A stretch of DNA of 63,249 nucleotides, the filler included, from Kipferlia bialata (Eukaryota): assembly GCA_003568945.1 (NCBI GenBank). It is 5 parts of 4 records of this genome, joined end to end, with 100 filler letters (N's around TTAATTAATTAA, not from the genome) between each part and the next. Parts side by side here need not be neighbours in the genome. Positions count along the whole stretch, not along the records: positions 20,528 to 37,206 come from BDIP01000039.1; 4 more parts are not named here. One strand, 5' to 3'. The first letter of the stretch is position 1, and the number at the start of each line of letters is the position of its first letter. Made by a program: the position numbers and the translations under genes. This document shows positions 2,013 to 37,206 of the stretch, in pieces. The notes under the pieces are model-generated. The model worked only from the letters and a program-made list of their open reading frames with translations, was not told where the DNA came from and ran no database searches.

Positions 2013-2046
<34 letters not shown>

Positions 2047-2431
2047 GTACCTATATTGATGTGTCACAGTCAGTGCGGTCGACGACAGGTGCGTCTCTGC
2101 CTCTCTCTCTCCCTCTATATATATATATATATATATATACATATATGGTATCACTACTGTCGAGATCGACATGGCTAAGAGTCCACTGTGTGTCTCTCTC
2201 TATCCCTCTCACTCATAGCAGGATCGACGAGTTCCACGTCTGGATCTGTGGGCCCAGTGACTCACCATACGAGGGTGAGTGCCTCTCTCTCTCCCCTCCC
2301 TTAAGCCCCAGTACATGTATATTCTGTGACGACTTACATACTCTTGTGAGGCCATAAACCCTTCTCCCTCACCCCCAGGTGGAGTGTTCCAGATCCATGT
2401 GACCCTGCCACCCAACTACCCATACAAGGTA

Positions 2432-2466
<35 letters not shown>

Positions 2467-4386: not shown

Positions 4387-5655
4387 TTACACGATCAGCC
4401 TGACCTCAGGTAGCTCCACCTGGATATCGGTGAGTAGCTCTCTGGGTACACGGGTGCCCCTGTGGTGAGACAAAGGGTGTACAATGAAACATGTATCTAT
4501 ACGTAGTCTTGACCAATGTGCTATCAGGTCCAGTAGACCAATATCTCCCCCTCTCTCTACATAAAGCATATTCATCTGAATGTAATCTACCTCAGTACAA
4601 TAATAATATATGAATATAGTATATATAGTATATACCTGAGCACTATGGTGTGCAGCCTTGGGCACTCTGCGATCAGGTCCAAGAGGCCTGAGTCACTGAC
4701 ACGGGTGTGGGATACATCGATGGACTCCAGACGCCGCAGGAGGCTGGGGGGTTAGTCTCTCTCTCTCTGGATACATATACATCTACAATACCAAGTCAGA
4801 GACAGCAGGAGTCTGGGGGGTCAGGTATCCATATATTCATTGCGCAGTTTCACGCGTACACATAGAGACAGTATTATAAAGTATATATGTCAATACCTAG
4901 CCACCCCCCTCAGTGCCCTGTCACTGCTCCTCTCTCTCTTTAACTATATACATATATATATATACATATATATATATACATACACTACATACCTTGCTAC
5001 TCTCCTCAGTGCCCTGTCTGTCACTGCCTCTCTCTCTCTCTATATATATATATATACATATACAAATCTTACACCATATATATAGAGTGTCTATACCTTG
5101 CCACCCTCCTGAGTGCCCTGTCTGTCACCGCACTGCCACTCAGATCAACACTCAGGGCACCACGAAGCAGGGCCTAGGGTGAGGGTATATATATGAGTAT
5201 ATGTACATGTCCATGTATATCAAACAATCTGGGGTGAGGGTTTGTATACGAATATGTAAATGGTTATCATACATACATCATACACTTTGAGCATGGATAC
5301 AATGGTGGTACCTTCTCGCCCTCTGTGACGTCCCCCTGTCTCATGGTGTGTGAGGCCGGGAGGGAGATGAGTCTTCTCAGCAGGGTAGAGGCTGGATCAT
5401 ACTCAGCCTCTCTCTCCCTCTCTCTCTCCCTCTCTCTCTCCACCTGTGGCACCGTTGCACGAACGGTCTCGGGGGTATCCCTGAGGTGACCTGTCCTCTG
5501 CCTGATAGAGTTCTCTCTCTCCCTCCCCCTCTCCCTCTCTGTGTTATCCACCTCGTGGTACATGCGGTTGATGCGTTTGAGGGTGTTGACGCCACGGCCT
5601 GATATATCAGGGTATATTCAGAGATATGTATGTATACATAGAGAATACTTGTGTG

Positions 5656-5695
<40 letters not shown>

Positions 5696-8600: not shown

Positions 8601-11600
8601 TCAAACATCTAAGAACAAAACAATACAAATACTACCATATCAATACAAATATTACCGTAGTCGTAGAGGAAGAGAACTGCATGAACCATATATTGACTAA
8701 ACATACCATAGGCTTAGGGGGGGGTGGCAGGGCAGGTGCCAGCAGTCTCGAGACTATGCTCTTGATGGGTCTCTCTCCCCTGGGGGTTAGAGAACACTAG
8801 TATTCAATACATACATAATTGTATGTGAAACTCTAATTAGGTTCATACCTAGCATCCACCGGCTTCTTGGAGACAACCTCTCCCTCTCCCTCTCCATCGG
8901 TGAATGTGGCAAAGAGTCTCTCCCTCTCCACATCACCCCAGTAGGCACCATACACCACATACTCGGACTGGATTGTTAGTTATCTATATAGCAGACACAT
9001 AGGATGATGAGTATTTCAACAATTCGAAGAGCGATATTCGAGTACATATCAACAGTAGGCACCATCACACTTACTCAGACTGGGGTCAGTGATGTATACA
9101 GTGTGCAATATACTAACTAGCATTCAACACATTACCAATGACACTGTCCACTGTAGTGAACACATACAATGTACACTACATTCTAGATGTAAAGAATATT
9201 AAATATACATACCGTGACTGCCTCTCTGACGCTGTCTCTGGCCATGGACCTGGCAAGGGACACGGTCTGGGAGTGAGATGCACACATATACATGAATGAG
9301 TGTACTTGTTAGATCCAGTAGAGATAGTGATAATAGTAGAAAGGACACGCACCTCTGCCAGCACCGACTCCTCGACCCACCCGGCCTCTCCCTCTCCCTC
9401 TCCCTCTCCCTCTCCGTCTCCCTCTGTCTCTCTGTTGAGGAATGGGTTGGGAGCATAGCTAGACACAGCTGGGGAACCAGACCCCACCCAGGCAATGGCA
9501 CGTCTGAAGATTAGCGTGTATATATATAGTATTAGTTATCAAACTATATATACAGAAATAGACACACCCAGGCATTGCACGTCTGGGGGTGAGATGGAAT
9601 ATGTATAGAGAACACGTACAACCATATACATTATAGTCATGTATATATGTATATATAATAGTATAATAGTATATGTATAGTATGAAATACTGCTACTAAC
9701 CTCACTGGGCTGAGCACTGACAGGATGGGCGCCAGGGTGTCTGGACTGGGCCCTGGGTCCTCTCTGACCACACTGCCACGTCTGGACCTAACAGTTAGAC
9801 ATGTAAATACAGTACAGTACAGTAGTCAATGGTTGTGGTATCTCACTCTATAAAACATACCTGCTCCCCCTTCTGCTCCTCCTGCCACTCTTCTCTCTCT
9901 CCTGCCTCTCCTTCTCTGCTCTCTCTCTCTCTCTCTCCTCCTCCTCCTTGGCCCTCTGGGCTATGCCCCTCTCCTTGTCCTGTCTCTCACGGTGCATCTG
10001 AGAGACGGCCTCGGAAAGCTGTCTGGGGTAAGACTATCTTCACACACATTGTATATACAAAGAAGAAGCTAGTGTAATGTGCTAGTGCTTAGGTAAGAGT
10101 ACATAGGAGGATACATACTACGATAATATGGTACCTGCTCCTCTCCGGTGTGTATCTCCGCATGTAGCAGCACTCAAAGGTGGACAGGGGCAGGAGGGAG
10201 AGAGAGGGGACAGAGGAGAGCTCAGACAGAGGAGCAGTGTGGCAGAAGAACAGAACCTGGGAGTTAGGTGTACACATTGAATACACACTGAATACCACAC
10301 TGTGTACATGGTAACTATATGGATACCCTATCTACTATATCTACTATTATATATATATACATATATACTATAAATGTGAAAAAGATACATACCTGTGTGT
10401 CTGCGCTAGTGTTGATGGGTACCAGTCTGAGGTCGTAGAGACCAGAGACATCCAGAACAAGGGGGGACACACGGTCAGCCAGGGACTGGGGTGAGCATAT
10501 GAAATGGTAAAGAGAGAGAGAGGGAGAGAGAGAGATACATCCAGGACAAGGGGGGACACACGGTCAGCCAGGGACTGGGTTGGTATGTGAATATGTGGGG
10601 TCACTTATAGCGAAACACATGATATGTGAGAGAGAACTACGGGTGACACCTGCAGTGCCCTCTGGAAGCTCTGTCTGAACTGTGCCATGTCTGTGTCTGT
10701 CTCAACAGTGTCTGGGAACAGGGGCATGCCACCCTGGGCACGCAGCCTAAGGGTCTGGAGGTACTGATGGTCAGTAACTACAAATAGAGAGAGAGAAAGA
10801 GAGAGAGAGAGAAAGTGAGCTAGAGAAGCATGTCACCCTCGGCTACGGGAGGAGGTACCCGATCGAGCATGGCCATAAATACTAATGTATATATAATACA
10901 TACTCATTACCTCCATCTCCCGCGTCCCCAGTGTCTCCACCACCCTGTCCTCCCTATCAACAAGGGGTACCGATGGCACAAAGGACCAGTCGGAGTTGGG
11001 AACAGCAACCATGCACTCGCCGGCGGTGCTATCGCCTAGGGGTTAAGGTGGTACCTGGTGTGTACATGCATATATAGTATTAAAACTGGTGTTTGTGTAC
11101 CTGCGATGCTGAATGAGACTAGTGCCAGGTGCACTCCAGGTGCCAGCCTATCCACATCCTCTCTCTCTCCCTCTGCCTCTCCCGCCATGGATGGAAGGGT
11201 GGGGTGGGGGGCACTTCTGGCCATAGAGGAGATGAACCTAGAGGTGAGCCATGCAAAACACATATATCAGTGCAAATGAATATCAATTGATAGTATACCT
11301 AGTGTGTCTGAGGGATGGGGGTCCCCTGCTGGCCACGTCCAGGTGGATGTCAAGGAGGGGGTACAGGACAGACTCGACCTGACATTAAGTGGATTGCATG
11401 TATATAGCATGTGTACACTATATATATGAAAACATATATATGTGTGTGTGTAGGTATAATAAGAAAGGGTAGAGGACAGACTCAATCTGACTGTTAGCAG
11501 AGAGACAAATAACTGAAGGTGAGGGGGTAGACTATATGCCACATATATTCATGTCGCTAAAAATATGTATATATGTACATATGTATAATACATACCTCTG

Positions 11601-14600
11601 CCACCCCCATGCGTCTGAACAGGGCCTCCCTCTCCTTCTCCTGCTGCCTCTCTCTCTCCCTCTCATTGTCAGTGACTATAGCGGCAGGGGGCACCACACT
11701 GGCATCAGTGCAAGCAAATTTGTAGATATGTTTACATACCTAAGTATATATACACTTCTACATGCGTACAGCAGCATATTCATACATTCATGTGAATGTG
11801 TATATGATATTTAAGAATTATGGATCTCCATACCTGCATGCATAGAGCAGCAGTGCGTCTGTGTGGTGGGGTGTGATGGACAGAGACAGGGGGCGGGGGA
11901 AGGGGGTGAGGGTCTCCCTGTCAACTCGGAAGCCTGGGGGTCAGTTATCACTTGTATATGTATATGAATACATTGTCTACACCTAAAACTATACCTGCCA
12001 TGTCCATCTGTGTACATACAGCGTGTAGAGCAGCTACAATAATACCAAATATGCAAATACACAATACTTAGTGATTATCTATCTATGTCATATATGCTAC
12101 CTGCCATGTCTATGTGTGTACACACTGTGTGCAGGGCAGCCTTGACTATATATCATACATCTGTATATATACTATATATATATACACATGTTGTATATAT
12201 ATATATATGCCCTATCTACCTGCCATGTCCATCTGTGTACACACTGTGTGCAGGGCAGCCTTGACAGCTGGGTCCCCGTCCTCCAGAGAGGACAGGAGGG
12301 AGAGGGTGGCAGACTGGACTGGGGGTTAGAACTTGTAGTTATGTATACGTACAATGAGGCATATATACATATATACAAATAGTTTAGATGATAGGAGGGA
12401 CAGGGTGGCAGACTGGACTGGGGGTCATATATATATACATACTACTGCATATATATATATTGATATGAAAATGAATCAGGGGGACAGGGTGGCAGACTGG
12501 ACTGGGGGTTGGTGTGTGAATATATAAAATATACATGGATGTGAATCATACGGAAGAGGGTGGGGATACAAATGAAATATGGAGTACCTGACTGATCCAC
12601 CCCCAACAGGGCAGATGATGCCTTGGGAGTGAACTCACAGGAGGGGAGGGCAAGGGGCAGGGCCTGAGGGTGAGGGTCAATGAAACAATACTACATACAA
12701 TGGACGGGTACAAATATACACTGCGCACAGTACCTGGGAACAAAATTAAACATACGAGTATTGACTCTAGTGTATAAAATGTACAATACCTATGTACTAT
12801 TAGCCTTGTTGGGCATTGGGTATGAGAGTGTACATAAATAACACTGACTCTAGTATATATATACCACAATACCTGGGTACCATTAGCCTTGTTGGGCATT
12901 GGGTATGCCAAGGCCAGTGCAGATGCCTTGTCCTGTGCGCCCCCTACATTGACAGCCACAATATCTCTCTCTCCCTCTTCCTCTGTCTCATCGGACTCTG
13001 GGCATGTGCCAATGAGCACCACTCTATAGGTCTTGGTCTGCTTGGGCTTCTCTCTCTCCCTGGAGGGGAGGGCAGGGGGAAGACTGGGGTGAGACCGAGT
13101 ATCACTGTAACCACAACAGAATACACGCTTTCTCCCTCAGAATCGTATTACTATAATAATTACCACCAGTATACTATACCTAGCCATAGAAGTGGGTGGC
13201 TCTGCCCTGGATGTCGTCAGAAGGGACCGGAAGCCCTGGCCTCTGCCCTCCTGGGCACCCTGGGCGTGAGAGGGTTATAACATGATATATACTATATACT
13301 GAACAATTATGGAATTCACAACAATACGGTATTGCACATACATAGAGATTACACTCTTATGCCCCGGCCAGTAGTAATGAGTAACAATTATTATGAATGA
13401 AAATGGAACGTAAATCCCCTCCATGTACACGCTGAATGATACAACCTATTTGGCCTAGTAACGTAAACATGTATACTACCATTACCTTATCAGCCGAGTA
13501 CTTTGACGCGAATGACAGACTCATCATGTCATCTAGGACACATATATAGTAATATTGATATATATATATATACCTAAATACTCATATACGTGTAGTAATG
13601 AATATAGTACTCTTGTCTTACCTTATCAGCCGAGTACTTTGACGCGTATGACAGACTCATCATGTCATCCAGGACATGGTCCAGATGGGTCAGGAGGGCG
13701 TCACTGATGCCGGCACTGACGGCAATGTCCCTAGTGGTTAGAATACATATAATGCCAGTAGGTACATGCATATGACTGTATTTGGTACAAAGAGGATAAT
13801 AGTTTGTCACTGATGTCGGCACTGACTGCAACGTCTCTGGGGTGTAAGTACACACATACTCTTCTTCTACACAAACAATTAATATAGCAGCTATATATAT
13901 ATATAAATGGTGGTTGTCACTGATGCCGGCAATGTCCCTGGGGGCTCAGAATAATATACCGTACACACACATACACACATATATACACATATATGCATCC
14001 AAGTATATTAATGTACAAAATGTCCAGTACCTGAGCTTAGCGAGTGTCTTCCCTAGGTCAGGCTGGGCAGGGATAGGCCCAGGGTAGAGAGACATCTGCT
14101 CAGCGATGAGAAGCAGTCTCTCGACGGAGGAGGCATCTCCTGAGTGTGAGTGAGATATATACACTTGGAATATAAGCTGTGTACATTTGTGTACACACAT
14201 TCAGTACATTACATTCTACACTATAGCTAGTAAGACTACTGTGGATGACAAATAGTGGGCGTTCCCAAATGTATACACCACGTTATGAGCAGAGCTCACC
14301 TGACACCTCCATGTCTGCTGCCTGTGTTGTTACCATATCATATATACATACATATACATAAATATACCCAAACTACAATCTATCTATATATCTATATATA
14401 TATAACACTGTCCAATCACCTGACACCTCCATGTCTGCTGCCTGTGTCGTGATGGTGTGGCACCTATAATACACACTAATACACTACTATATACTGTCAT
14501 TCTCACCTGACACCTCCATGTCTGCTGCCTGTGTAGTGATGGTGTGGCAACTATAGAACATATCAATACACTACTATATATATATATATATATATATTAT

Positions 14601-17600
14601 AACTCTTTAGTACCTGACACCTCCATGTCTGCTGCCTGTGTTGTGATGGTGTGGCACAGCTGGGCAACGGCAAGGGCTGGAAGGTGAGGGAAGAGAACCA
14701 AAACGCATTGTCGCTCTACTATCTAAATACATATATATCAAATACATACCTCTGATGCGGATGTTGCCGAGGTAGAGTGTCCTGAATGCAGACAGGGCAG
14801 AGGGGAGGGCAGAGGGCTGGGGGTGAGGATGGTATAGTTATATACATATACTTTGTAAGTCAATGTATGTATATATATATACATCTATATGCAGACAGGG
14901 CAGAGGGGAGGGCAGAGGGCTGGGGTTGGAGGAGCGTGTATATACTCTTGAAATACTGGAATGGAAAGTCGCCAGGTGCCATGTAGTTTACATTGACCCT
15001 AAGAGACTCGTTGAGTATACCTAGTCATTGACTCAAACTATACCGTACATACATACCTTGACACTCATCAGATGAGCAATAGCACTATTGACCGACAGTC
15101 TGGAGCCCAGACCGGCACGGGTCTCTGGGTATGAGTGCATATTCTAAGTTTTAACGAATTATCTAAGATATATGTATGTACTGCTGTGCATACCGGACAT
15201 GAGTCTCTAATGAGGACAAACAAATTCACATATGGATATATGAAAGCAAATATGTAAATTTCTATACCGCGTGTGTTATACTACTATATACTACACTTAC
15301 CTGTGGGTGGAGGGAAGAGTGTGTCGATGTGTTCCATCCACACATCGGCAAAGGGGTAGATACTCTGCTTGGGGTCGGGGGTCAGGCGGCCTGACAGTAA
15401 GAATAATACATCCAGTTTAGGAAAATACATTTCTAATACATAGTCGGGGAGACACCATAGTATATACGTTATCAACGATATGGAGATGTCTTTCTCTACT
15501 GTTGAGATTGACTACTAATACTCACCTGACACATACTGGTACCACTTTGTGAGCCCCTCCACATACTCAGGACTGGGGGACAGGGCACGGTTGAGAGTGA
15601 GGGCAAACTCAATGGAGGCGCCCCTGATGTCAGTATAGAAGTGTTACAGATACCCAGAAGCACAGCAGCGTATACCGTGCAAGGGTGGCCAGTCTACTCT
15701 CTGGCACTGTACAATATAGAATACAAATATATGGGAGGCATACCTGGTTGCAAGGGTGGCCAGTCTCTGGCACTGTGCCACCTCTCTATCCACCAGAACA
15801 CCCCTGGTCTCAACAGGTGAGAGGGGGGTCAGGTGGGCCTCGAGGGATGCCTGGCGTCAGAGTGTTAATCTCTTTTATATACATATACATAGGAGGGTCA
15901 GATCGGCCTCGAGGGCTGCCTGGGATTAGTACATATACATGGATCTACATCCAAACATATACTTATGATATATCTTTTACACATGTTAACCGTGGACCCC
16001 ATAGACCATAGGCACAATACTCTATACAGTGCATGAGTGTATATATATATGAACATACCTGTGTCTCCTCCCTGGCCTTCCCCTTGCCCATGTCCACTAT
16101 GCACTGCATACCATCCACACTCAGACACAGCCTCTCCCGCTCAAGGTCGTGGTCTGGGGTAAGGCGGTAAGAAGCTGAGGTATTCTGCATGCAACGTGGG
16201 AGCATGCATTATATGAATATCTGACACATACCCGAGAGGATGTCAGCCGTAGCAGAGAGTGCTGCCCCGTATACCATGGGCAGGGACAGGGAGAGGGACC
16301 ACTCCACGGCCTGTCTCCTGGGGTGCCTGGGGTGAGATGGTGCATTGATAATGCTAAGAGTACACTATACTAGATAATCATAGTAAGCGTAAGATTGTAT
16401 ACAAACTCACGTTGTGCTAAGATTTCCATACAAAATTGCTACTGTGCATACCTGAGCAGCAGCAGCGCCCTTACTGGGGCCACTGCTCCCCCTGTCTCTC
16501 CCTCTGTGGGTGCCCTGACTGTTGTATCCTCAACCACAACTAGGTAGTGGGACCTGGAAATGAGATGTAGACATGGTATCTATATGTATAACACAATACT
16601 GTATATTTGAATACATACGTGTGCCCTGGCGCGTGATGAGACACTACAACTATAATAATAACCTATTGAGAGCACTTCTGTTGAGTGCATTGGGCACTGT
16701 CAGGGTGGATGGAAATATGTACAATGAATATATACTACATGTATTACACTACCACACAACTACCACACTATATATATAAGGAGTACCTGTTGAGTGCACT
16801 TCTGTTGAGTGCATTGGGCACTGTCAGGGTAGAGGGGTCAGGCAGCATGGGACCATCACTCTCCCCCTCCCCCTCTCTCTCCCTCTCTGCCATTGACCTG
16901 TACCAGGCATGGACAGGGGAGGCAAAGGAGGTCAGGGTGCACTTCACTGCGCAGTGGACCTTTTGGTTACAGAGGAGCAGTCTGAAATGTACTAATATAC
17001 ATATATTAATATGTACTGATCTAGTGTATCAATTATAATAGCGCCCTACCTTGACGCTCTTCCCCGTGGCTGACCCGAGCCAGGTGCTGATGTCACTGGG
17101 GGTGAGAATGGAAACATACATGGAACAAAACTCAATATATATATCAAAATATCTATATATAATGAAATTAGTATAAGCCAGGTGTTAATGTCACTGGGGG
17201 TGAGGATGGTAAAGACAACAATAAGTAATATGTTGTACTGTATACCCCCTATTCATATGTATGAGGAAGTTGGTTATATGAGTCAAAAATGTTCAGTTAT
17301 TGCTATTGTATATATAGTTATTAATGTGATGTACTGTGAATCTATACCCATGAGTGCTTATGGACCAATACATGTGTTTATTGTACCTGATGTACTTTGG
17401 CTCACATAATCTCAAGAGTATATGTAAATGTGTATGAATATATATATATATACAGTCATACATATTTACATGCATATGATACCTGATGTACTTTGACTCG
17501 TGTCCCTCAGTCACTGGGGGAGATGCCACCAGTCTCTGCCTCTCAGCGGCACAGACCTGAGGGTAAGAACAGATATATAAATAGGAGACAGTGAATACTA

Positions 17601-17670
17601 TATTCAATTTCTAGTCTGGTCGTAGAAGGAAACCTCTAAGAATGGGACATGGGAGGCAGAGTATTTCACT

Positions 17671-17701
<31 letters not shown>

Positions 17702-18631
17702 CTATCCATTACCTTGCGTGTCTCTGCCAGGGACACCTCTGAGAATGGGGCATCCTTAGCAATGTGGTCTGGGATGGCAGTCTTGGAGGCCTCGATCATG
17801 GTGTTGGCCCTGGGTTTAGATCGATGAATATAGAAGAATATAGAATACTTATGTAATATCATAGTAATACATTGAGTATACTACGTTATTGGATGCCTCG
17901 ATCATGGAGTTGGCCCTGGGGGGGTAGCAGAAAACAAAACTCCAATGTATATACTACAATATAAATTAAATGTATAATGTACTCTATCCCCGCAACGCAT
18001 GCAAATGTATAGAAGGTGTATGTATATATACATATTAGCATGTATATACCTTGGTGTTCCAGGTGCAAATGATGGGCTCCTCACCATGCCAGGGGACAGG
18101 ACAGTGCGGCGGAGACGCTCCTAGGCATAAGAATACATATAGAATACATATGCATTATTTCCTTAGAGGGAGATAATGTATACCGTTGGCCTGTGCTTGA
18201 GGCTGGCCATCCCCAAATAATGCATGTATACCAGAAATACCCACGTGTATATGTACACACTGCAATGTGTCCTAATATAATATACGAAATACATACCTTT
18301 GGCCTGTGCTTGAGGCTGTCTCTCCCCTGCTTCAGCAGGTCACTCTTCCCAGGCTGGACTGCAGCCTCTCTGGCAAGGGGAGAGGAGTGTCTGGGGTGAG
18401 GATCCGTTAATATATATGTGTATATGTATATATATACATCCTATATATTAGTAATTACGTATAAATAGCTATCACTCTGACCAGGGGGAGGAGTGTCTGA
18501 GTGAGGATAGAGATATACACAGAATACTATCCTGCCATATATATATACTATATATATATATTACCTGAGGAATGGTGACTCCTGCCCTACTGTTGTGGAC
18601 ACAGCACTATCCATACCATATATCCATATGT

Positions 18632-18672
<41 letters not shown>

Positions 18673-20046
18673 CCCTGATAAAATAGTTACTAATACACAC
18701 CTGAGGAATGGTGACTCCTGCCCAACTGATGTGGACATGGCAAGGGGAGATGGGGAGGGGAGGATGGGGGAGGGAGCTGTATCTCTCTCCCTCTCCCTCT
18801 CTATCTCAGGCTGAGGGGGGGCAGCGGGGGAGCCTATAGATTAGAGAGGGAAGAGGGATCCAGTAATATATACAAAAGACAAAGGAAATAATGTATATGG
18901 ATATCACTTTCGTATCATTCTTATTTATCGTATTATCGAAAGAGAGAAATCATGTATACTTCCCATACCTGTCATGGGGCATGGCTCCACGCCAACTGTT
19001 CTTATCACCCATTTCACAATACATATATTATCAATAGTAAGACTCTCTCTGTATACATAGTATACACTGTACCTGTCATGGGGCATGGCTCCTCGGGCAC
19101 TGTGCCCTGGCCAGCCAAGGGGTTGGCAGCCTCGGAGGGCTGGGGGTGAGGGGCCAGAAATACATAGAGGGAGAGACGAAAGGAGTGGGGGTTGGCATTA
19201 GAAACCCATATGAAGATATATAATATAGATATCGGTCTAGTATACCTGCTCCTGCTCCCATGTCCCCAGTGGCCTCACTAGTATGTATACCATACTAATA
19301 TGTACCTATTGATATACAGAGAGACAGATAGAGTATATAGACAGTCACACAGTATACCTGCTCCTGCTCCCATGTGCCCAGTGGCCTGACCAGTATGTGG
19401 GAGGCAGAGGGCAGCTTGAGGTCATGGACCTGGGCATGAGGGAATACATAGGTACACAGACACTGCATACTCAGCTCTCATAGTACGGAGACAATGGAAT
19501 ATGATATATAGTGGGAGACACACATACCTGGCACATATGTAAAGTAGTGTATACTCATACCTTTCCCACCAGGGGCAGGGGCCTTATGACATCCAGGTTG
19601 GGCTTGATCTCACACAGCTCATAGGCAGACAGATCAGCAACCTGGAAGGGTAAGGAGGGTTAGTAAGGACAGTGAATATTCATTATATATATACATATAT
19701 ATATAACACATCGATCTCACACAGCTCATAGCCAGACAGATCAGCAACCTGGAGGATTAGAAGTATACCTAGATAGAGGGAATATGTGGTGTTATCGAAA
19801 AAGGTTGAGGGGGGAGGGGGGGGGGGGTATCGAACACCATATACTGAGGAATCCGTCCATACGTATATCGGGGTACAAATATATACACATGTACCTACAA
19901 TGTAACATATTTACTCTACATACACGTATCAATACCTGCAGCTTCCTCCCTATACTCTTGAGCAGTCCCTCCATCTGTATACTGGCAGGTGCCACCACAA
20001 TGACAGGGGGAGTGGGCTTGGAGCCGGCATGCTCCTGGAACCTGAC
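4387..20046 (-). CDS. Large multi-exon (>45 exons) hypothetical protein with coiled-coil region and C-terminal LRR-like repeats; 5' end lost at the gap
   Basis: Continuous chain of GC-rich exons bounded by CCCAG/CCTAG acceptors and GT donors on the minus strand. C-terminus: ALLRGALSVDLSGSAVTDRALRRVA...LRRLESIDVSHTRVSDSGLLDLIAECPRLHTIVLRGTRVPRELLTDIQVELPEVRLIV* (TAA 4387-4389), an LRR-like pattern. ER-rich coil at 6350-6445. Not every phase was checked, so it could be more than one gene. Confidence 0.65.
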
Positions 20047-20527: not shown

Positions 20528-20624
20528 TTTTTTTGTCTAAAAAACAACCCACCCCCCCCCCCCCCCCCCCCTCCCATTCTGTGCTTCTCTCTCTCTCTCT
20601 CTCTCTCTCTCCCTCTCCCCCTAG

Positions 20625-22961: not shown

Positions 22962-22981
22962 GTGGGGTGTTATGTGGATAC

Positions 22982-23029
<48 letters not shown>

Positions 23030-23049
23030 TTCCCCCCCCCCCCCCCCCC
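22982..23049. repeat. Poly-C run (probable mis-join point)
   Basis: About 68 nt of nearly pure C. Similar runs sit at contig ends (about 20552, 37311, 45116, 63214). Confidence 0.85.
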
Positions 23050-23075
23050 GTTCATCATCGGTCTGGTAACCTCAG

Positions 23076-23404
23076 GTTCAGATGGCCCTCTGGAAGGACG
23101 TCATTGACTTTGAGAGACTACTCGGTACGTGTAAGTCACTCAATTAACTGGGTCACTCTATGTATCTTATATGTATATATATATATCTTGTATTGACTGA
23201 AGTCATTGACTTTGAGAGACTGCTCGGTACGTACCACAGTATTCATATTATTCACAACAAATTGGAGATCCGTCCGACTATTTGTGACTATTCCTGACTC
23301 TCAATTGACTTTAGGCGACTCCATGCAGCTTGACGCTGGTCTCGCTGCCAACAGACTATTGTTTGTGTACGAGCAGGCACTGCTGCACCTGAGGTATACA
23401 TACA

Positions 23405-23441
<37 letters not shown>

Positions 23442-26400
23442 TAGTATATTCTTATGTATTCCAACTACTATTGTGTGTTTGATGTCAATGAGCAAGTACT
23501 GCTGCACCTGAGGTACTTTCTCTCTTCTATTCTGACTATGAATCTATGTAGTAATGTATTTGTACATATATTGGTAATCTCGTTATTTTTGTGTATGAGC
23601 ATGTTCTGCTGCACCTGAGGTACTCTCTATTTCATGTACATATACGGATATATACAGATATTTGTATTCCAAATAGTATTCTGGCTTTGATAACTCATAC
23701 ATACATATGTATATACTCGCTCTATCTTCGTATTCATATGGCGAATTTATAATCGTATTACCTATGTCTTTTTACCCCAGGCACTGGCCCGACCTGTGGA
23801 TCGAGGCAGCGGAGGTCATGTCGGGGGCAAGGTATATAAATATATATATTGCATTATATGAGTACTGACTATGTTTGCTGTCTCTCTCCCTCCTTTACAT
23901 ACTCTTTGTGGCTCTATGCATGATCTCTAGGACCATTGTGTCCCGCACCATTCACTCACTCTCTATCTTAGTATCTCTCTCTCTCTATATATATATCTAT
24001 CTACCCTTACCTCTAGAACTATCATGTCTCGCACCATGCTGAAGCACGACATGGCATACGGGGCACTGACTGGCAAGGAGATTGCAATAGGTGTGTATAG
24101 TACTTTATATATATATTCAAAGAGTGAGAGAGGGATACATATATATGATATGTATGAATATTGTTATATATACTCATCCCTAGGCCTTCTGCAAAAGGGC
24201 ATCCTGGCCTGTCCCAATATATATAGATACACACATATATATGCATTAATATTTAGTGTGGACCTAGTATATATGTATCTTATACTCACAGAGGGGCATC
24301 CTGGCCTGTCCCAATGTAGAATATCTATATATATACCGAGATATAGAAAAATATATATATATAATATAAATATAAATATATAATATAAATATAAATATAT
24401 AATATAAATATATATATATTGACTTCCAGGTCTGCTCCAGAGGGGCATCCTGGCCTGTCCCAAGTGTGCCCTGCTCTACATGTGTCTGGCAGACAGATAC
24501 GAGGAGGTACAGTATATATATATATGTATATGCAAATATTTGAATATATGTGTTTACTAACTGTATTTAATACTATCGATATGCCCTGCTATACATGTGT
24601 CTGGCAGACAGATACGAGGAGGTATATATACCAGTATAATATGCGTTGACATGGGTTATTGTCTAAATGGATTCCAATCATTGGTAGTATTGAATCTATT
24701 CTCAATCTAACAACTAGAACAACAAGCGCCACCTGGCCGATGCCGTCTACAGAAGGGCACTCATATCGGCACCCAGCCCAGCTCTATTCAGGTAATCTTT
24801 CTCTCATGTGTTCCATGTACTATCTATATATTACAAGCATGTGCTTATTGTATCCGCACCCAGCCCAGCACTCTTCAGGTACTGTGTGTATGTGTGTGTA
24901 TGTGTGTGTGTTTGTCTCTCTTCCTATTCTGGTACGCTCTCTCCCACTCATTCTCAGCGAGTACATGAAGTATGTCTCCCGCACCCGTTCAGTGGCTAAT
25001 GCGTTTATTTCCCATCTCTCTCTTTCTCGCTCTCTCTCTCTCCCTCTCTCTCTCTCTCTATCTAACTATAGTGAGTACATGAAGTACGTGTCAAGAACAC
25101 GTTCAGTGGCTGATGCCCTCTCTCTCTATCCCTCTCTCTGTCTCTCTAACTGTAGTGAGTACATGAAGTATGTCTCCCGCACCCGTTCAGTGGCTGATGC
25201 CCTTTCGGCATTTGAGCTGGCATGCGACGATCCCAGTAAGATTCTAGGTGTGTTACAAGCTCTACAATGTGTCTAGATTATATACACTACCCATGTTTGT
25301 ACTCTCTACATGCATATATGTATACCTAACCATAGGCTCTCCCTCTGTCCCCTCTGTCCTCTATGCCATTGTATATATACATCTCTCTCTATATATATGT
25401 ATTTATATATATTTATAACCCTAGGCTCCCCCTCTGTCCCCTCTGTGCTTTATGCCATTGTGGCCAGACTAGATACCCTATACATGTACTATATATATAT
25501 ATATACATATATCATATGTCTCACTATAGGCTCTCCCTCTGTCCCGTCTGTCCTCTATGCCATTGTGGCCAGACTCGAGTACCACGGGATGGGTCGGTCA
25601 GGCACAGCAAGGCAGAATGCTATCAACAGGTATAATATATATATATATATATATATATAGTATATTGGATATATTAGTATGTATATATACCACCGGATGG
25701 GCAGGTCAGGCACAGCAAGGCAGAACGCTATTGACAGGTATACCTATGTACAGGAGTCTATGTTTGACGATGTTTGTGAGTGGATAACCCCCTAGGTTTG
25801 AGTCTGGCATCCGTGCCAACCCCCTCCCCCCCCACCACCACACACACATTTATTTTGTATATTATTTATATGTATCATCTATATGTATCATCTATATGTG
25901 TCATCTATGTGTATCATCTATATATACACTCACGTCTCAGGTTTGAGTCTGGCATCCGTGCCAACCCCACCAATGCAGAGCTGCTCGCAGAGTATGTCAG
26001 GTTAGTATGTTCCCCCTCTCTCTTTCTCTCTGCCAACACCCTAATTTACACCCTTCGCGAAGGTGATCAAGTTATAAGGATTAGTATGTACTCTCTCTCT
26101 CTCTCTCCCGCTACACCCTTATTGCCAGGTTCCTGTCCGAGATGGGTGATGAGACCGGTAAGGTGGATGTCATCAACAGGTATGGGATACATATAGATAC
26201 AGAGTAGTTGTATAATGTATATGTATAGAATGCATTTCATAGTGTGTAGTACTAATACATTGACAGGCATGGTGGATGTCATCAACAGGTGTGTATATAT
26301 ATTTATGTACACATATATCATGCATATAAATAGTATGCATAGTATATACTCATATATATATATAGTGTATATTATTCTCATTCGGACTGGCATGGTGGAT

Positions 26401-26987
26401 GTCATCAACAGGTATCGGAATACATGTATTTGTGTTAGTATACAACGTTAATGCTTTCTGTACTCCTTATACGTCTCGTCACCAGATGTGAAGACAGCCA
26501 CTCAGACTCTGACACATGGAACACACACACTACCTGCTCAATGTTATATAACCATATACATTAATATATATATTTATTACTAACTCCAGATGTAAGGACA
26601 GCCAATATATATGTATATATATTGGTATAGAGAGAGAGAGAGATAGTTGCAATATGTGGGGTGTCGCTGCATGGTTGCCACATGTAGTTGTTAGTAATAG
26701 TGATATATGACGTTCTCCTTTCCTCCAGGTGCAAGGACAGCCACTGATACTGATGATAATATATATATATATATATGCATTAATATGTTTTTATATGTAT
26801 ATATGTATTTCTTACCCCTCAGATGCAAGGACAGCCACTCGGACTCTGACACATGGAACCAGTACCTGGTGTCACTGCAGATAGAGAGCGGAAAGAGGTA
26901 TATCCAGGGCTTACTCTATCTCTGCTATAGTGTCTCTGAGTGTATTGAGACACTAACCCTTCAGAACCGAGTCCCAGCCCCTGCCTG

Positions 26988-27034
<47 letters not shown>

Positions 27035-27668
27035 CTTTCTATTTTCTCTCTCTCCATACATCTACGTGTGTAAGATATCATACTTACATATCAGAACCGA
27101 GTCCCAGCCCCTCCACGATGCCTCTCTCTCTCTCTCTAACTCCTTCAATATGCAATATATGTACTAATGACATGTACTAACATCAGAACCGAGTCCCAGC
27201 CCCTGCCTGATGCCTCCCCAGCCGAGGGGGTGCTACTGAGACACAGTTACAGGTATATATACATTCTACATGATTTGTTTCTATTTATAACTATATAAAT
27301 TAGAACAGCCCCTACACACATTTATGTTACATATCTATTCTATATCTGTGTTTTGTACTATATCTGTGTTTTGGTGTGTCTACTTGTATCCACACTGACC
27401 CCCAGAGACCTTGTGCCCCTTGCCCCTGCCCTCCAGAGCTGCATAGCAATGAGGTATACTATTATATACATACATATATAGGCACATATGTATATTAGAC
27501 GAAAGTTTGTGAAGCACATCACATTTGCATATTCACCAGTATTTCCCCTCCAAGACTGCCAATATGGTTTATATCCCTGTATGTATGTATATATATATAT
27601 AGTAACCCCTAGAGGTGTCCAGTCCCTGCCATCCATGACAACCAGTATACTCTTTCTCTCTCTCTCTT

Positions 27669-27713
<45 letters not shown>

Positions 27714-27802
27714 ATATATATACGTATACTAACATCTAGGGGTGTCCAGTCCCTCCCCTCCATGACAACCAGATATACTCTTTCTCTCTCTCTCTCTCAC
27801 TC

Positions 27803-27837
<35 letters not shown>

Positions 27838-29136
27838 TAACCTCAGGGGTGTGCAGTCCCTCCCCTCCATGACAGCTATCTGTATACTCTCTCTTTCTCT
27901 CTCTCTCTCTCTCTTCGTATATATATGTATTCTTATATATACACATTTACACCCAGGGGTGTCCAGTCCCTCCCCTCCATGACTGGCGAGGACGAGACAG
28001 TCGGGTTCCTGGCAAGGTGTGTATCAGTATATAGGGTTATTAGTATATATATATGTACTAGCACTATTTGCATATGGTAGGCTCCGACCCAGTCGGCAGA
28101 CTCAATCCATAGATATGGATAAATTCATATACATACGAACAAGTACTAATTACAGGGTCCCCATCTCCGACCCAGCTGGCAGACTCATCATTTACATATA
28201 TATCAATATATTCATGTGAGTATATATACACATATGTAGGTTACCTTCTATTCTCACCCCTAGGGTCCCCATCTCCGACCCAGCGGGCAAGCTGAGGGCA
28301 GAGAGGATCACAAAGCCAGACTTCCCACGCCTACCTGGTATGTATTACATATATATAATGGTAGTATTGTATAAATATTATATTCATTATAATAGTGTAT
28401 ATGAGTGTCAGTATTCACTAGGCCAGACTTCCCACGCCTTCCTGGTACGGTATTGTATATATAATGATAGAGCTACTTATATTTGTTTACAATATTTTAG
28501 AGCAAGTGTCAGTTGATCAAGCCAGATTTCTCACGCCTGCCTGGTATGTATTGCATAAACATATATATATGAATATACATTAATTCTAAGTGACCTTTTC
28601 AATGAGTATTTGAATGGATTACATTTTGATATGTATGTATTTTTATCCCCTTCTTAACAGCAGTCTATGACGTTGTGAGTGACTCCGTCACCAACTATAT
28701 ATATATATATTTATATGTATGTATACTTGTCTGCATATCTCCCTCATATGTTTAACTATATATCCCCCTTCTAACCCCCAGTCTATGACGTTGTGAGTGA
28801 CTCAGTCACCAACAATATTAGTATATATATATATATATATTAATTATATACATAATATATATACATTACTAAAATCTCTCTCTTTTACCCCCAGTCTATG
28901 ACGTTGTGAGTGACTCAGTCACCAACCATATTCATATATATATATATATATATATACTATATATATATTATACCTACGTAGTAATAACTCCATATATATA
29001 TATATATATATATCTTAACCCCAGTATATGACGTTGTGAGTGACTCAGTCACCAACCCCAGAGGCGGGGCCCAGATATCGGCGGTATGGCTCTTTCTCTC
29101 TCTCTCTCTCTCTCTCCCTCTCTCTCTCTCTCTCTC

Positions 29137-29171
<35 letters not shown>

Positions 29172-29208
29172 TCACATATACAACCCCAGATATCGGCGGT
29201 ATGTATAT

Positions 29209-29245
<37 letters not shown>

Positions 29246-32200
29246 CTTCTGTATATAACCCCCAGCACAACCCTGTGAACCTGAGTATATATGTGTATAT
29301 GTCAATTAATATGTCTATCCATAATACCCCTCACCTCAGCACAACCCTGTGAACCCACTTCCCCCCACGGCTCCTGCCGCACTCAAGGCACTCTATGGCC
29401 TTCTTCCAGGTATATATATATATATTCATATGTATATATATATTCATATGTATATGTGAAACATAGCTTATATATGCATATACCCCACTGCACCTGCCGC
29501 ACTCAAGGCATTGTATGGTCTCCTGCCAGGTATTCTTTGATGTATGTGGATATATATTTTGACTCCTTTGACCTCTTCTGACAGATATCGTATGTATAAT
29601 TCATGTATGTGTAATGGGTACATGTCTGTATTAGATCAATATCTGTAAATACTTGTCGCGTGCGTGTATTGATTGTGTATGATATACATATATTGCTCTA
29701 TCTCACTTCCAGTCCACATGTCTGCTGTTCTCCCCCCCCTTGTGACAGACGTCATATCTATGTATTTATTCATATACATTTAGTAGAACAATAGTATTGT
29801 ATTGATAGTGTGGTCATACCTTACTCCAGTCCACATGTCTGCTGTCCTCCCCCCCCTTGTGACAGACGTCATAGTGGGTGCAAACAAGTGGAAGCCAGGT
29901 ATTGGATACAATTATGTGTGTAAATATGTGTGGATTCCTGTCTTGATTGTACATCTTGCATTTTGATTCAGTGAGACAAGTCCAAGTCTGATTTATAATT
30001 CCATGTCTTCATTGTCTGTCTCACCCCCCAGCCAGACGCGACCCAGATGGCCACCCGTACCTACCCACAAGGGCAGTCGGTACGTATCATATGTATACAG
30101 TGTGGATATATANNNNNNNNNNNNNNNNNNNNNNNNACGTATCATATGTATACAGTGTGGATATATATATGAATATATATGTATATGCATTTACTATGTG
30201 TCATATAGTATACCTACCCATAAGGGCTGTCGGTACGTATGCCTCTACTTATGTTCAAGTTTGGGCAAGACGAAGGCTGGGGAGAGTCACATTCCTATCT
30301 AGCAATTTATACGCGTAGACAGATAGATTGTTATACATATGTATACATATGCCCTCACTCCAGTGGCCACTGCCAATTGGTTGGGTGAGAAGGGATAGTC
30401 CCTTCCTATATATATGTATACATTTGTCCATTATTATTACTAAACCCTCTCTCCATATATATTTACTCTCTCTGACCCCAGTGACCACTGCCTACTCCCT
30501 GGGTGAGAAGGCGAGAGAGAGAGAGAGAGAGGAGGCAGAGAGGGAGAGAGAGAGAATCGAGGCCAACCGCAGACAGGCAGAGAGAGAGGTACATGCACAT
30601 GTATATGAATACCTGACATGCATATGAAATATATATATTTTTATATATATACTCGTACTATTGTGGATGTACTTGTAAACAAACACTAATTGTAGGGCAT
30701 CGACGCTCGCCGTGCCGAGAGAGAGAGACAGCTGGCCAAGGAGGAGGAGAAGGAGAGAGAGAGAGACAGGGAGAGAGAGAGGGCCAAGAAGGCAGTGGAC
30801 CCCAGGGCTAGGTACATGATTCTCTTCTGTTTCTAGTTATGGGTGTAGTTGTATAGTATATAGATATTTGAATATTTGTATTACTAGTTGTATGTATATG
30901 TATGTGTATGTATATACTGATGCCCAGGCCCGTTGACCCAAGGGCACAGGACCCTAGAGCCATGGATCCTAGAGCTATAGACCCCAGGTGATAACTGCAT
31001 CATATATGTTATAATATGTGTAATAAGTAAGGTATACGTAATGTTCTCTCTTTATATGCATTATCATTATATACCCATCATGTATGTATACTGACCGTCA
31101 GACAGGCCTCCATCGATCCCAGACAGGCAGCCGACCCTAGGTATGTGTACTTGTAGTACTTGGAATATTATATGTTTGATGTATGCAACCAAGTATATAC
31201 AGTCCATAATTAGAATAATCATTAGAGTTCATTCTATAAATTAATTTATATATATATATATTGTACACTGTGTATCTGCACTCACCGCCAGACAGGCAGC
31301 TGACCCCAGGGCCCAGGATCCAAGGTCCATCGACCCCAGGTATAGACAGACGTAAGGCCATGCATTATGTGGATATATGTATTCAAATATATATATATAT
31401 ATATATATATGTGTATATAGTTAATCACTCACCCGTCAGGCAGGCAGCCATGGACCCCAGGCAGGCTGCTGATCCCAGGTACATATATAACATACATACA
31501 TACATACATATATGTATGTATTCAGGCATGCTGCTGAACCCAGAGGAGTGGACCCCATGTATTCATATGTATACATATATATTCATAGTATGTATATGTA
31601 TACATCCTATTCTATCTTATATAGGTATATACACTCACCCTCAGACATGCTGCTGACCCCAGAGCAGTGGACCCTAGATCCATTGATCCCAGGTACGATA
31701 TACAAGAGATATACATGTGCTTATAAAAAATATATTGTGCCTCACTTTGAGTTATGGTGTCTCGCTATATACTTGCCCATTTAATGGCACGCTATATTTG
31801 TAGTATGTAAATATATACATCAATACATATACCTCACGTCAGGCAAGCCGGTTCCGCTGACCCCCGTGATCCAAGGTACGCTACCCTCTGTGTATATTAT
31901 GTATATATATATCTGTGTATATATGTATATATAGGTATTCATGTCGTGATCCAAGGTATGGCACACTGTCAACTCTGTAGATGATGTGTATACAATTATT
32001 TGTGTACTAGTACACTCTGTGAAGATATTTGTGAAAATGTGTGTATATTGATACTGGTGGTATATATGCTAGTACTGGTATATATGAGTGTGTATGTATC
32101 TCATATCCCTAGGATGCAGGCTGCCGACCCCCGTGACCCCAGACAGGCAATGGACCCAAGGTATGGGTATATATATATATATAAGTATATATACATTTAC

Positions 32201-32730: not shown

Positions 32731-33421
32731 TCAGCATCTATATGTCTCACTGGCGTTGATACGAGCTGAGAGCCTACGCATAGGCGGATCAGAGACCAAT
32801 CCTCTGACAGGTGCAGTGCACTCTGGAGGGGAGAGAGGTCTAGTGTTGGCACGGTGCATGCATATATCGTCCCACCTCTCTCCCTCCCACCGCAGCATAG
32901 CGTCCACCTGGCGCTTCCTGAAGGCATTGACCCTTGACATCAGCCTCTCTGACTGGACGGGGTCTCTGACAAAGAGACGCAGCCTGTCGATCTTGGCCTT
33001 GGGAACCTGGAGGGTAAGACCATATTTATGAGGAAGCACTGCACTTGTCAATAACGGATACAAAGTAGGTGAGAGAGAGAGAGAGAGAGGGAGAGAGAGA
33101 CACACCTCTTTCACACCACGGAGGTAGCGATCATAGTTACAGGTGTCTGGGATGTACTCGCCTAAAGGTGAATATGGGAGAGAGAGAGAGAGAGAGAGAG
33201 GGATGTACTCGCCTGAAGGTGGGATATGGGAGAGAGAGAGAGAGAGAGATGGTTACATAATTGAGAGATGTCGGTGATGCACTCGCCTAGGTCAGATAGA
33301 AGGGGAGGGGGAGGAAGGGGGTAGAATACAAAGATGATGTAGTGTAATGTATGTATGTAGATAGTAGATAGAGGATTATGATACACGGAGAGTACCTGGT
33401 GCACGGCCCCTCCAGAGAGAA

Positions 33422-33455
<34 letters not shown>

Positions 33456-35887
33456 AGAATTTGATGAGAGCATGATACGCAGTGCCAGTAGTGTGTACCT
33501 GGTGCCCGGCCTCTCCTGCGTCCCTGCCCTGCCACTCTCTTGTACCTGGTATCAGTAGCAGTAGCAGCATATATATATATATCAGTATAGGAAATATAGG
33601 ATACTGATAATCTGCCCTGCCACTCTCTTGTACCTGGTATCAGCATATATATATCAGTATCAGTATATAGGATATATATAGGATATATATCAGTATATAT
33701 AGGGATACTGATACTCTGCCCTGCCACTCTCTTGTACCTAGTAGCAGTATATATGTATGTATGTATCAGTAGCAGTATATATTGGATACTGATACTGGTA
33801 CCTCTCTAACAACATGATACTGAGCCTGACAAGTTCCGTCTGACTCCGCTTCTGCTCCGCCTCTCTCTTCACCCTCCACTCTCTCTCCCACTTCTCCAGT
33901 CCGCCACCCTTTCGGACAGCAGCAATCAACCTGGCAATCAACATAACATATCAAGAGATGAGTGAGAGAGAGTATATTACAGTATACATATTTAGCAGCA
34001 ATCAACCTAGCAATCAATAGAGACCAGGGGAATCCCCTGTGGGGATGAAAAATAATGAGTATACAATTAATGAAGAACACTCATCCTACCTCGCCATAAC
34101 AACAATACCAGGGGAGGGCCCCTGGGCCCCATCAGTAACTACGGGGACCAATGCACGGCCTACAGTCCTCTCCTGGGACTCAAGCACCTTCGACCCAAGC
34201 CGGCCTAGGTCCCCAACAAGCCCCTGCAGAATCAGTATGAGTTAATACTATGGTCTATAGATACACACAGAGTATAGTCTCTAGATATATATATGTATCT
34301 ATAGTCTATGGATACATATATACTATAGATACAGGTTCAGACATTAGTACAGGTACTGGCCCAGTATCAGTATCAGTATATATACAAGTACTGATAATGA
34401 TGCCTATGATACTTATACGCATACATATACTGATGCTATTATACCTTCAATTGTATCAGACGGTCACAGTAGTCTGTACATTGCGAAGTGTTACTGCCAA
34501 AGGGAAACACTAGCCGCGCCATCTGGTATTAGTGTCAGTATCGCTTCATTGTTTCATGATTGAAACTATCTTATCGAAAGGACACTTCGTGAATGACTAG
34601 TACTAATATAATACCTGGTCCATCTCGAATGCATGCAGAGGCTGATCTAGGGCACTCCCTCCTGTACCCTTATTGCACAACCAGCGATACCCAACCACGC
34701 TGTCTGCCAGCCATGTGAATCCAATAAGATCCCCAGTAGGATCCCTATAGATATGTTCCCCGCCAGAGGCCGCTGATAGCATCTCGTCAACCAGTCTGAT
34801 GTGAGAAGAATCTTCTCAGAAGATACTATCTTCAAGATAGTGATAAAGAGAATACAGAGATACACAGAATCTGTGACAGATACAAATATGGACATAGATA
34901 ACGGGAGAGAGGGCGGTTGGCAGGAACGGTGTGATAGAGAGAACACAACACACACAAATATATATGTATGCATATGTATAACAATAGACAGGAGACAGGC
35001 GATTGACACCTCACAGGAGTATATACTATATAGTATGTAACCATGCTCTATACACTCATTCACTATATATAGTGTATATATAGTATAGATACCTCCTAAT
35101 TTGTTGTTATAAACTAGTTATAAATTCTAACTACTATACCTCATTAACACCAAACTGGCAGTCGCGTATGTACATCTGAACTGGCCCATATGTCTCTCTC
35201 TCTCTCTCTGCAACTTATTCTCCTGCTGCCGGCCACCCTCCTTCTTTCTCTCTCTCCTCTTCCTATCCCTCGCTCTCGCCTCTCTGTCACCATGCCTATC
35301 GTGCATACGGCGCTTGGCAGGTGTGGTACGGTCCTTGTGACTGCAGCTGTTCTCGCCGGAGGCCTCTGTCACCCCTGGAGACACAGACCCACCAGGGCCT
35401 CGCTTCTGTGACAAGTGCACCCTATGGACACTGAGTGAGTGATACAAGGGAAGATATGTTTGTGTAATTACTGTCCTTTCCGAATTAGAATATTGAGTAT
35501 ATATAGAGTCAGCAATCGGCTGCGTACATCGAGAGAGTGCTGTAGTCATACACAAGAAGATTACAAGTGGGAGCGCTGTCATAGGGAATCTCTGTCAGAC
35601 AGATACTCTATATGTACTGTTCAGGATATATTTAGCATATACATACTACGTACTGGTCAAGGATAGGCTGGCGCAGGTGTATGATCCGCGGGTTGCCAGC
35701 TACCAGCCTGGGGTCAATGCATGTACCCCAACCCGCCCACAACTATATCCCCACTGTTCCCCTTCAAGCCTATCTCCTCACAAACCACTCAGGTCCACAC
35801 AGCAATAATGAAGTGCTCTAGCAAGAAATATATCCCCCACCTGTACACCTGAAGGCACCGAGTATCAGGCTCTAACCGAGTGGTCAT
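32731..35887 (-). CDS. Multi-exon hypothetical protein
   Basis: Candidate ATG 35887 (MTTRLEPDTRCLQVYR). Exons include RLVDEMLSAASGGEHIYRDPTGDLIGFTWL..., MARLVFPFGSNTSQCTDYCDRLIQLK, GLVGDLGRLGSKVLESQE..., LIAAVRKGGGLEKWEREW..., GEYIPDTCNYDRYLRGVKE, VPKAKIDRLRLF...ETYRC*. No recognised family. Confidence 0.6.
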
Positions 35888-35970
35888 CCAGCCGATATTA
35901 CAGGAAGCCAAGAATGGAATGAGAATAGAATAGCATTGGTCAGGATAGCAATGGCTGGCAAATCGGTCAT

Positions 35971-37121: not shown

Positions 37122-37136
37122 GTATGACGTGTGCAT

Positions 37137-37206
<70 letters not shown>

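Follow-up and report, generated by a model that had tools for sequence, protein, structure and literature searches.

The locus and its gene models

The window is a stretch of 63,249 nucleotides of Kipferlia bialata DNA, made of five parts joined by N linkers, in which eight genes with 131 exons were modelled by a self-trained gene finder and hand curation. All eight curated models have open frames and GT–AG introns. Introns of this window carry short partial copies of one end of a neighbouring exon, hereafter named echoes, and the gene models that bear them include the following.

1905..3903, plus strand: ubiquitin-conjugating-enzyme-like gene (G1); 7 echoes, with 12 silent differences against 1 non-silent
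4391..20041, minus strand: long 56-exon gene (G2), a gene-finder model only; 34 echoes, dN/dS 0.225
23076..30987, plus strand: Suf/CstF-77-like gene (G4), 22 curated exons, open frame with GT–AG introns; 34 of the 82 echoes counted
32876..33930, minus strand: gene fragment (G8); 4 echoes

The first 424 residues of G4 are identical to part of the deposited protein KIPB_000364 (P0002), on which Pfam Suf is matched with an E value of 4.9e-23, while the UQ_con match on one exon of G1 (E 3.9e-5) lies below the curated cut-off. G2 has an open frame of about 2000 residues with tracts rich in ER/GE, and exon 39567-39821 is a 100% match to KIPB_000362 of K. bialata. Two sets of contigs were used alongside the window, namely, those of run X2, which is taken as RNA by guess and not from its record and behaves as spliced, and the DNA contigs of run X1, which may be the read set from which the window was built.

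Positions 45271-54855 are an exact inverted second copy of 20528-30112 (9585 of 9585 nt, 100%), flanked by N linkers that contain a stop-in-all-frames spacer. The two stretches are the same contig placed twice, and the inverted copy was left out of the echo counts; the silent patch of the focal echo described below recurs inside it, at 50284-50298. A poly-C run at 22983-23049 probably fuses two different genes: the deposited KIPB_000364 joins a PALP-like part to the Suf part across it, and X2 contigs of 4655 and 2482 nt lie separately on either side. The C-terminal DPR-type repeats of the Suf gene (30928-32399) form a run of tandem-duplicated exons of 18-60 nt, that is, a duplication of whole exons beside the partial echoes. 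Further along the window, 59122-59550 and 60500-60870 (plus strand) hold a kelch-repeat ORF with few introns (Pfam Kelch_4, E 7e-17) and, behind it, exons that resemble a DnaJ J-domain, with an HPD motif. A kelch-gene echo at 55140-55185 (minus strand), outside the counted set, shows about six amino-acid changes and one silent codon with no indel or stop, and a second one at 55480-55500 (minus strand) shows two silent changes.

A focal intron of the Suf/CstF-77 gene

The features of the focal intron and its surroundings are as follows.

24718..24791, plus strand: exon upstream of the focal intron, seen in X2 as a contig piece and a joint
24792..25155, plus strand: focal intron, 364 nt, GT..AG, with three echoes; the X2 contig joint skips these 364 nt
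24851..24880, plus strand: echo of the 3' end of exon 24718-24791, donor GT included; three differences, all silent
24958..25002, plus strand: far echo of the 5' end of exon 25156, behind an AG; one silent and one non-silent difference
25072..25119, plus strand: near echo of the 5' end of exon 25156, behind CTAAC..TAG, continuing into (CT)n
25156..25247, plus strand: functional exon (EYMKYVSRT...), in the X2 contig with no other letters and in the deposited protein
25336..25372, plus strand: far echo of the 5' end of exon 25530; one silent difference
25425..25473, plus strand: near echo of the 5' end of exon 25530; five differences, all silent
25530..25629, plus strand: next functional exon, in the X2 contig and the gene model

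An earlier note on this DNA had drawn attention to six silent changes in five consecutive codons, and these are indeed present: the near echo reads TAC GTG TCA AGA ACA at 25085-25099, and the exon TAT GTC TCC CGC ACC at 25169-25183, both coding for YVSRT, and the far echo agrees with the exon throughout this patch. Six random changes in those 15 nt would all be silent with a probability of 2.5-4.5e-5. Multinucleotide mutation was considered as the cause of this patch and rejected.

The 2482-nt X2 contig joins 24791 to 25156 at GT..AG, with no other letters in its eight listed exon pieces, and since this joint skips 364 nt, the echoes at 24958 and 25072 are intronic in the main transcript. The deposited KIPB_000364 uses exon 25156-25247, as does the X2 contig; the exon ends at 25247 and not at 25235, as first given. 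The near echo was also described as lacking a donor and running into (CT)n, and the second half of this description holds, but a donor-like GTACGT lies at 25084-25089, 12 nt into the echo; the same donor-like site (GTATGT) is found in exon 25156 itself and in the far echo. Furthermore, to say that such copies cannot form exons is too strong, as reading from the acceptor of 25072 or of 24958 into the exon is in frame and stop-free, with extensions of 84 and 198 nt, respectively, and both echoes are usable in principle as 5' exon extensions.

Echoes differ from their exons mostly at silent sites

Alignment of each exon to its flanking introns gave 93 matches, and a cut-off score of at least 16, reached by none of 221 unrelated exon–intron pairs, keeps 82 of them on 48 exons. 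The counts leave out the 11 matches scoring below 16, contig 54956-63249, the DPR tail of G4 after 30987 and the fragments 1-700 and 34000-37200. The echoes cover 13-55 nt of one exon end with a median spacing of 111 nt, and occur in 48 of 123 introns, whose median length is 256 nt as against 86 nt for the others. Nearly all lie in genes with long AT-rich introns. In G5-G7 (37307-45170), the introns are short and GC-rich (median 60-70 nt) and only one echo is found in 26 of them, which makes echo formation regional.

The 82 echoes show 178 differences from their exons, distributed as 27, 23 and 128 over codon positions 1, 2 and 3, with 123 silent and 55 non-silent ones; 48 of 1615 0-fold sites (3%), 33 of 402 2-fold sites and 97 of 461 4-fold sites (21%) are affected. 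Marks of decay amount to two stops and four frameshift indels. The resulting dN/dS is 0.126 (exon-cluster bootstrap 95% interval 0.087-0.18), in agreement with the expectation of the earlier note that it should be far below 1. This value also lies below a stricter null that the note had missed, with a ratio that should be close to 0.5 if a conserved exon adds silent changes only while its echo decays neutrally; none of 5000 bootstrap resamples was at or above 0.5. The ratio changes little with the choice of data: 0.130 without the two echoes of the focal exon, 0.142 for 0-fold over 4-fold sites with one echo per exon (n = 48), 0.15 with all 93 matches, 0.066-0.15 over six score thresholds, and 0.077 in the annotated exons of G3 and G4, against 2.5 and 4.7 in the wrong-frame controls. 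By gene, it is 0.02 in G1 and 0.10 in G4, which are recognisably conserved, versus 0.225 in G2. Third-position transversions affect 5 of 299 2-fold sites and 60 of 461 4-fold sites (p = 3e-9), a contrast that identifies the filter as the genetic code and rules out a mechanical 3-nt periodicity. Divergence shows no relation to spacing among the echoes, overdispersion among them is not significant (p 0.09-0.23), and a shift to conservative amino-acid changes is marginal (p 0.04-0.09). Silent-biased echoes are real and general in this window, and neutral decay does not explain them.

An assembler that stitched two haplotypes or strains in tandem could produce a similar picture, and the window does contain clear artefacts, namely, the contig placed twice and the probable poly-C chimera; in addition, X1 may represent the very reads from which the window was built, and the focal echo lies outside the eight longest X1 pieces shown. 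However, X1 contigs cross whole echo arrays with no difference (23451-23967, 25669-26080, 26119-26979, 27929-28687 and 29461-30087), the word depth in the echo arrays (353-397) is the same as that of the remaining pieces (421-484), no alternative letters are listed, 94% of the words sampled are present, and the echoes have unique flanks and partial lengths. We regard such an artefact as very improbable.

The echo lineages themselves were filtered

In exons with several echoes, the changes private to an echo affect 14 of 349 0-fold and 24 of 97 4-fold sites (p = 5e-4 against 0.5). Among 23 adjacent echo pairs, the changes private to the near echo number 7 in 420 0-fold versus 12 in 114 4-fold sites (p = 1e-4 against 1), and the two echoes of a pair diverge from each other by d0 0.033 versus d4 0.21. 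Given this silent bias in echo-private changes, the echo lineages themselves passed purifying selection.

These data bear directly on the simplest account, in which an echo is a copy of its own exon that decays neutrally while the exon drifts at silent sites. Decay does take place: stops and frameshifts occur, the pair branch with fewer private changes looks neutral (5, 5 and 1 changes at 0-, 2- and 4-fold sites), and exon-to-echo changes lean from GC to AT (41 vs 24 at 4-fold and 23 vs 11 at 0-fold sites), as decay in the echo would give; the neutral-looking branch and this lean both count against the allele-exchange reading proposed below. Nevertheless, this account predicts a ratio of at least 0.5, which neither the observed value nor any bootstrap sample attains, and the changes private to echoes show a silent bias and no nesting. 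If the echo were frozen and the exon next to it fast-evolving, the echo would retain its flanks; these are nearly saturated, which, together with the silent-biased private changes, rules out this variant. Neutral decay is hardly credible as a general explanation.

With regard to their internal structure, four sites show three states among an exon and its echoes, and silent differences are clustered, with 31 adjacent pairs where 19.6 would be expected (p = 8e-4). A two-state HMM gives a 2dLL of 19.9, compared with at most 6.8 in 12 shuffles, and roughly estimates a 4-fold divergence of 7% for 72% of sites and of 58% for the other 28%, the patches being about 6 nt long. We read the echoes as mosaics of exon-identical stretches with a little decay, plus foreign patches, and the patches at about 58% suggest donors from deep lineages and not from one well-mixed population. 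The gradient of 0-fold changes towards the breakpoint expected under crossover refresh was not seen, in a test that alignment trimming weakens. As to the anchoring of exchanges in microsatellites put forward in the earlier note, inspection by eye shows many junctions that enter TA/CT tracts and many that do not.

Splice sites, flanks and use at the RNA level

The AG or GT at the exon boundary is intact in 77 of 82 echoes. Echo acceptors (n = 44) score 8.5 bits; the acceptors of the exons they copy reach 9.0 bits (in-sample), and 712 further AGs within introns -3.2 bits. A TNAC branch motif accompanies 21 of the 44, versus 67% of real and 8% of random sites. Among the 123 real acceptors, the branch-like TNAC of these 67% lies up to about 14 nt from the AG, often with a C run after it. 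Flanks, in turn, resemble the flanks of the neighbouring copy with a gapped identity of 64-65%, versus 60-61% for unrelated controls, and are barely above controls even for most of the 13 echoes with no difference; 14-18% of flanks exceed the 95th percentile of controls, and directly upstream of acceptors, a stretch of 8-10 nt lies modestly above control. Some echo arrays are clear tandem units (113 nt, 81% matches). Functional-looking splice sites with dissimilar flanks are what pieces of working alleles would show if the introns of these could not be aligned; old units fit equally well, provided that their exon-like part has been reset again and again. At 2818, an echo acceptor scores 14.8 bits and the acceptor of the copied full-length exon at 2913 only 2.8 bits, which, as far as the bases go, suggests that splice choice is made by exon definition.

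Strong splice sites kept in 77 of 82 echoes, together with the two focal echoes that read in frame and stop-free into their exon, raise the possibility that echoes serve as alternative acceptors or donors, as micro-exons or in an AG/GT hand-over, and are thereby exposed to protein-level selection; minor isoforms would be hidden in contigs, which drop rare forms. Yet the only contig set that bears on echo-containing transcripts shows skipping, with the full exon and no other letters in all eight listed pieces. Echo spacing is in frame in 27 of 82 cases (chance 1/3) and both in frame and stop-free in 8 of 82, so in-frame extensions are not enriched; the 74 echoes that cannot be read through into the exon keep the same ratio (0.143 vs 0.127), and an internal AGGT shared with the exon is found in 4 of 82 only. 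A general use of echoes at the RNA level is not supported, although rare use is conceivable, and we consider RNA-level use improbable as the source of the silent bias.

Origin of the exon-like sequence

Our preferred reading, to which we assign a probability of roughly 0.6, is that recombination with working but strongly diverged alleles of the gene concerned provided or renewed the exon-like part of the echoes. At the start, a duplication in tandem, about 110 nt long and straddling one exon boundary, a pattern visible in the arrays, would leave an acceptor and exon start upstream, or an exon end and donor downstream. Such copies with a single splice site may survive through being skipped by exon definition. 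If the introns of different haplotypes are nearly unalignable, homology would be limited to the exon-like 30-50 nt, and unequal crossover or short conversion tracts could place pieces of other functional alleles in the echo or in the exon, some of these pieces bringing a splice site along. Most echo–exon differences would then be differences between alleles that selection on the protein had already filtered, with slight neutral decay on top, and the echoes would need no function of their own. From the literature, we can speculate that Dmc1-type recombinases, acting where Rad51A and NHEJ are missing, favour this refresh.

The earlier note had offered two routes, namely, capture from diverged functional alleles and cycling in and out of the exon. 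Capture fits the low dN/dS, the silent echo-private changes and the functional-looking but dissimilar acceptors, although no donor allele was found. Cycling confined to a single clonal lineage is not supported: a toy simulation of one lineage, in which exchange was unequal, conversion took place and the last copy had to pass a viability filter, gave ratios of 0.64-0.92 in 11 of 11 settings, compared with the 0.126 observed, whereas the ratio was 0.035-0.33 in 12 of 12 settings once tracts were drawn in addition from a set of diverged functional alleles. At high recombination rates, a plain coalescent with recombination reproduces how many echoes are identical and how low the overdispersion is. 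It misses the clustering, with adjacency ratios of 1.0-1.17 versus 1.6 observed and at most 1 of 60 runs reaching 1.55 in each of eight settings, so that the model has to be supplemented by donors with deep structure or a history of hybridisation, or by a patchy repair of heteroduplex; the simplest, well-mixed version of the allele-exchange model fails. Moreover, the required allelic diversity (at least 0.2 at 4-fold sites) is extreme and counts against allele exchange, and flanks close to saturation, next to a 4-fold divergence of only 21%, call for introns that turn over fast or for units that are old. The mostly non-synonymous kelch-gene echo at 55140-55185 likewise speaks against allele exchange.

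Each of several protein searches, limited by their length windows, returned only the deposited protein of the window itself, with a protein cluster size of 1, and no other letters are listed in the DNA or RNA contigs; the donors thus appear to be absent from this genome. No second strain was found among the sequencing runs, and metagenome scans, with 30 pattern matches for the protein, none of them confirmed, and no match for a degenerate pattern, are uninformative on other strains.

The donors could instead be homeologs or paralogs that stem from an earlier hybridisation or a doubling of the genome; the second gene set would since have been lost or left unassembled, and the echoes would be its remnants, deposited by out-of-register repair. 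The two-class mosaic with its patches at about 58%, the poor fit of the plain coalescent to the clustering and the paralog-like kelch echo at 55140-55185 speak for this origin, as does the fragmented state of the deposited assembly (N50 10.5 kb, BUSCO 84%, as given in the available text of PMC8516963). It has to contend with the single protein returned per search within those length windows and the cluster size of 1, with the four three-state sites, which need more than two donors or repeat hits, and with the low 0-fold divergence, meaning that the donors were functional until recently. We hold it to be unlikely, if conceivable.

A clonal alternative would treat echoes as spare parts, brought into the exon by repeat-mediated deletion or conversion so often that second-order selection would clear echoes of non-silent changes and of dead splice sites, with no exchange between individuals. 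It explains intact echo acceptors and a low ratio without sex, and metamonads, according to the available text of PMC8516963, appear able to use every sub-pathway of homologous recombination, single-strand annealing among them. Against it, clonal cycling without population-level selection yields the high simulated ratios given above; by arithmetic, a d4 of about 0.25 would limit the exchange rate to about eight times the mutation rate; selection would work only with a diversity of about 0.3, which is unlikely under clonal interference; and saturated patches and unrelated acceptor flanks are left unexplained. This alternative seems to us rather unlikely. All counts refer to one 63-kb window, and the simulations are toys.

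Returning to recombination with diverged alleles, a wider version, which we put forward tentatively and at somewhat less than even odds, is that the lineages of K. bialata form a complex in which they recombine despite deep divergence (0.2-0.6 at 4-fold sites), and that mismatch-tolerant, Dmc1-only recombination, anchored in exons since introns do not align, deposits allelic exon ends and splice sites in introns genome-wide. If so, a single genome would contain thousands of allele samples and a readable record of sex and diversity, and the echoes would form a pool for swapping exon ends and splice sites back in.

Biological context

According to the available text of PMC5874029, the K. bialata genome is a short-read SPAdes assembly with 124,912 GU–AG introns and the one intron-rich fornicate genome described there; its main text makes no mention of duplications or of alleles, ploidy or heterozygosity. 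The portion of PMC6679479 at hand does not mention tandem duplications either. As described in the accessible part of PMC8516963, metamonads are without NHEJ, and all examined Fornicata have lost Rad51A and possess two Dmc1 paralogs; the key proteins of meiosis are conserved, and there is as yet no direct observation of sexual or parasexual processes in Metamonada. Certain Dmc1 residues have been tied to the stabilisation of mismatched heteroduplex (PMC6719624, available text), and a link of this mismatch tolerance to the echoes is speculation. No published description of the echo pattern was found in the openly accessible main texts searched; the echoes are a variant assembled from known processes.

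K. bialata is a free-living protist, and on the preferred reading the echoes would be a genomic trace of sex in a group without direct observation of it. Non-coding copies bearing the mark of protein-level selection are hard to obtain clonally, and the question of sex thereby becomes testable from one genome. The echoes would also yield allelic diversity and tract length without population sampling, and indicate a route of intron lengthening and splice-site turnover. They represent, in addition, a trap for annotation, as the gene finder used in this analysis took echoes for micro-exons.

Comparison with known systems

Internal (intragenic) tandem duplications spanning exon–intron boundaries were reportedly described by Gao and Lynch in 2009. 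Like the echoes, they are short intragenic units copying a splice site and part of an exon, and the echoes are adjacent direct copies with one splice site, 77 of 82 being anchored at an exon end. Neutral decay of a non-functional copy, with a ratio of 0.5-1, is what such duplicates should undergo; the echoes, in contrast, occur in 48 of 123 introns and at dN/dS 0.126 are diverged as alleles and not as decaying duplicates.

Tandem duplicated, mutually exclusive exons also place homologous exon sequence side by side with a silent excess, as seen here. They were rejected as a model, the echoes being partial (13-55 nt), limited to one boundary and passed over in the spliced contig. The available text of PMC3443670 outlines how introns are gained when genomic DNA is duplicated in tandem at AGGT, a route that shares with the echoes a tandem duplication involving splice signals. 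The echoes differ in making no new intron and in lengthening existing ones (256 vs 86 nt). This candidate was also set aside, with an internal AGGT in 4 of 82 echoes and a focal intron that is spliced around both echoes of its downstream exon.

Cassettes of the Borrelia vls type diversify antigens by amino-acid change at dedicated loci. Silent-cassette archives used in gene conversion, such as Borrelia vls (PMC11499132), resemble the echoes in being unexpressed partial copies beside an expressed locus, linked to it by segmental conversion. The echoes, however, belong to housekeeping genes, differ mainly by silent changes and give no hint of a programme; antigenic variation by silent cassettes was rejected given 123 silent versus 55 non-silent differences and host genes that include the Suf and UQ_con families.

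In highly diverse sexual species, concerted evolution and inter-allelic conversion bring the difference between copies close to allelic diversity when exchange is frequent. The protein-level filter on both branches and the mosaic tracts found here are those expected of such a process acting with diverged alleles, with the difference that an echo is a non-coding exon end of 15-55 nt, repeated across many genes. In the way they work, the echoes are most likely an instance of concerted evolution in which one partner is a partial, non-coding duplicate and the other a highly diverse set of functional alleles.
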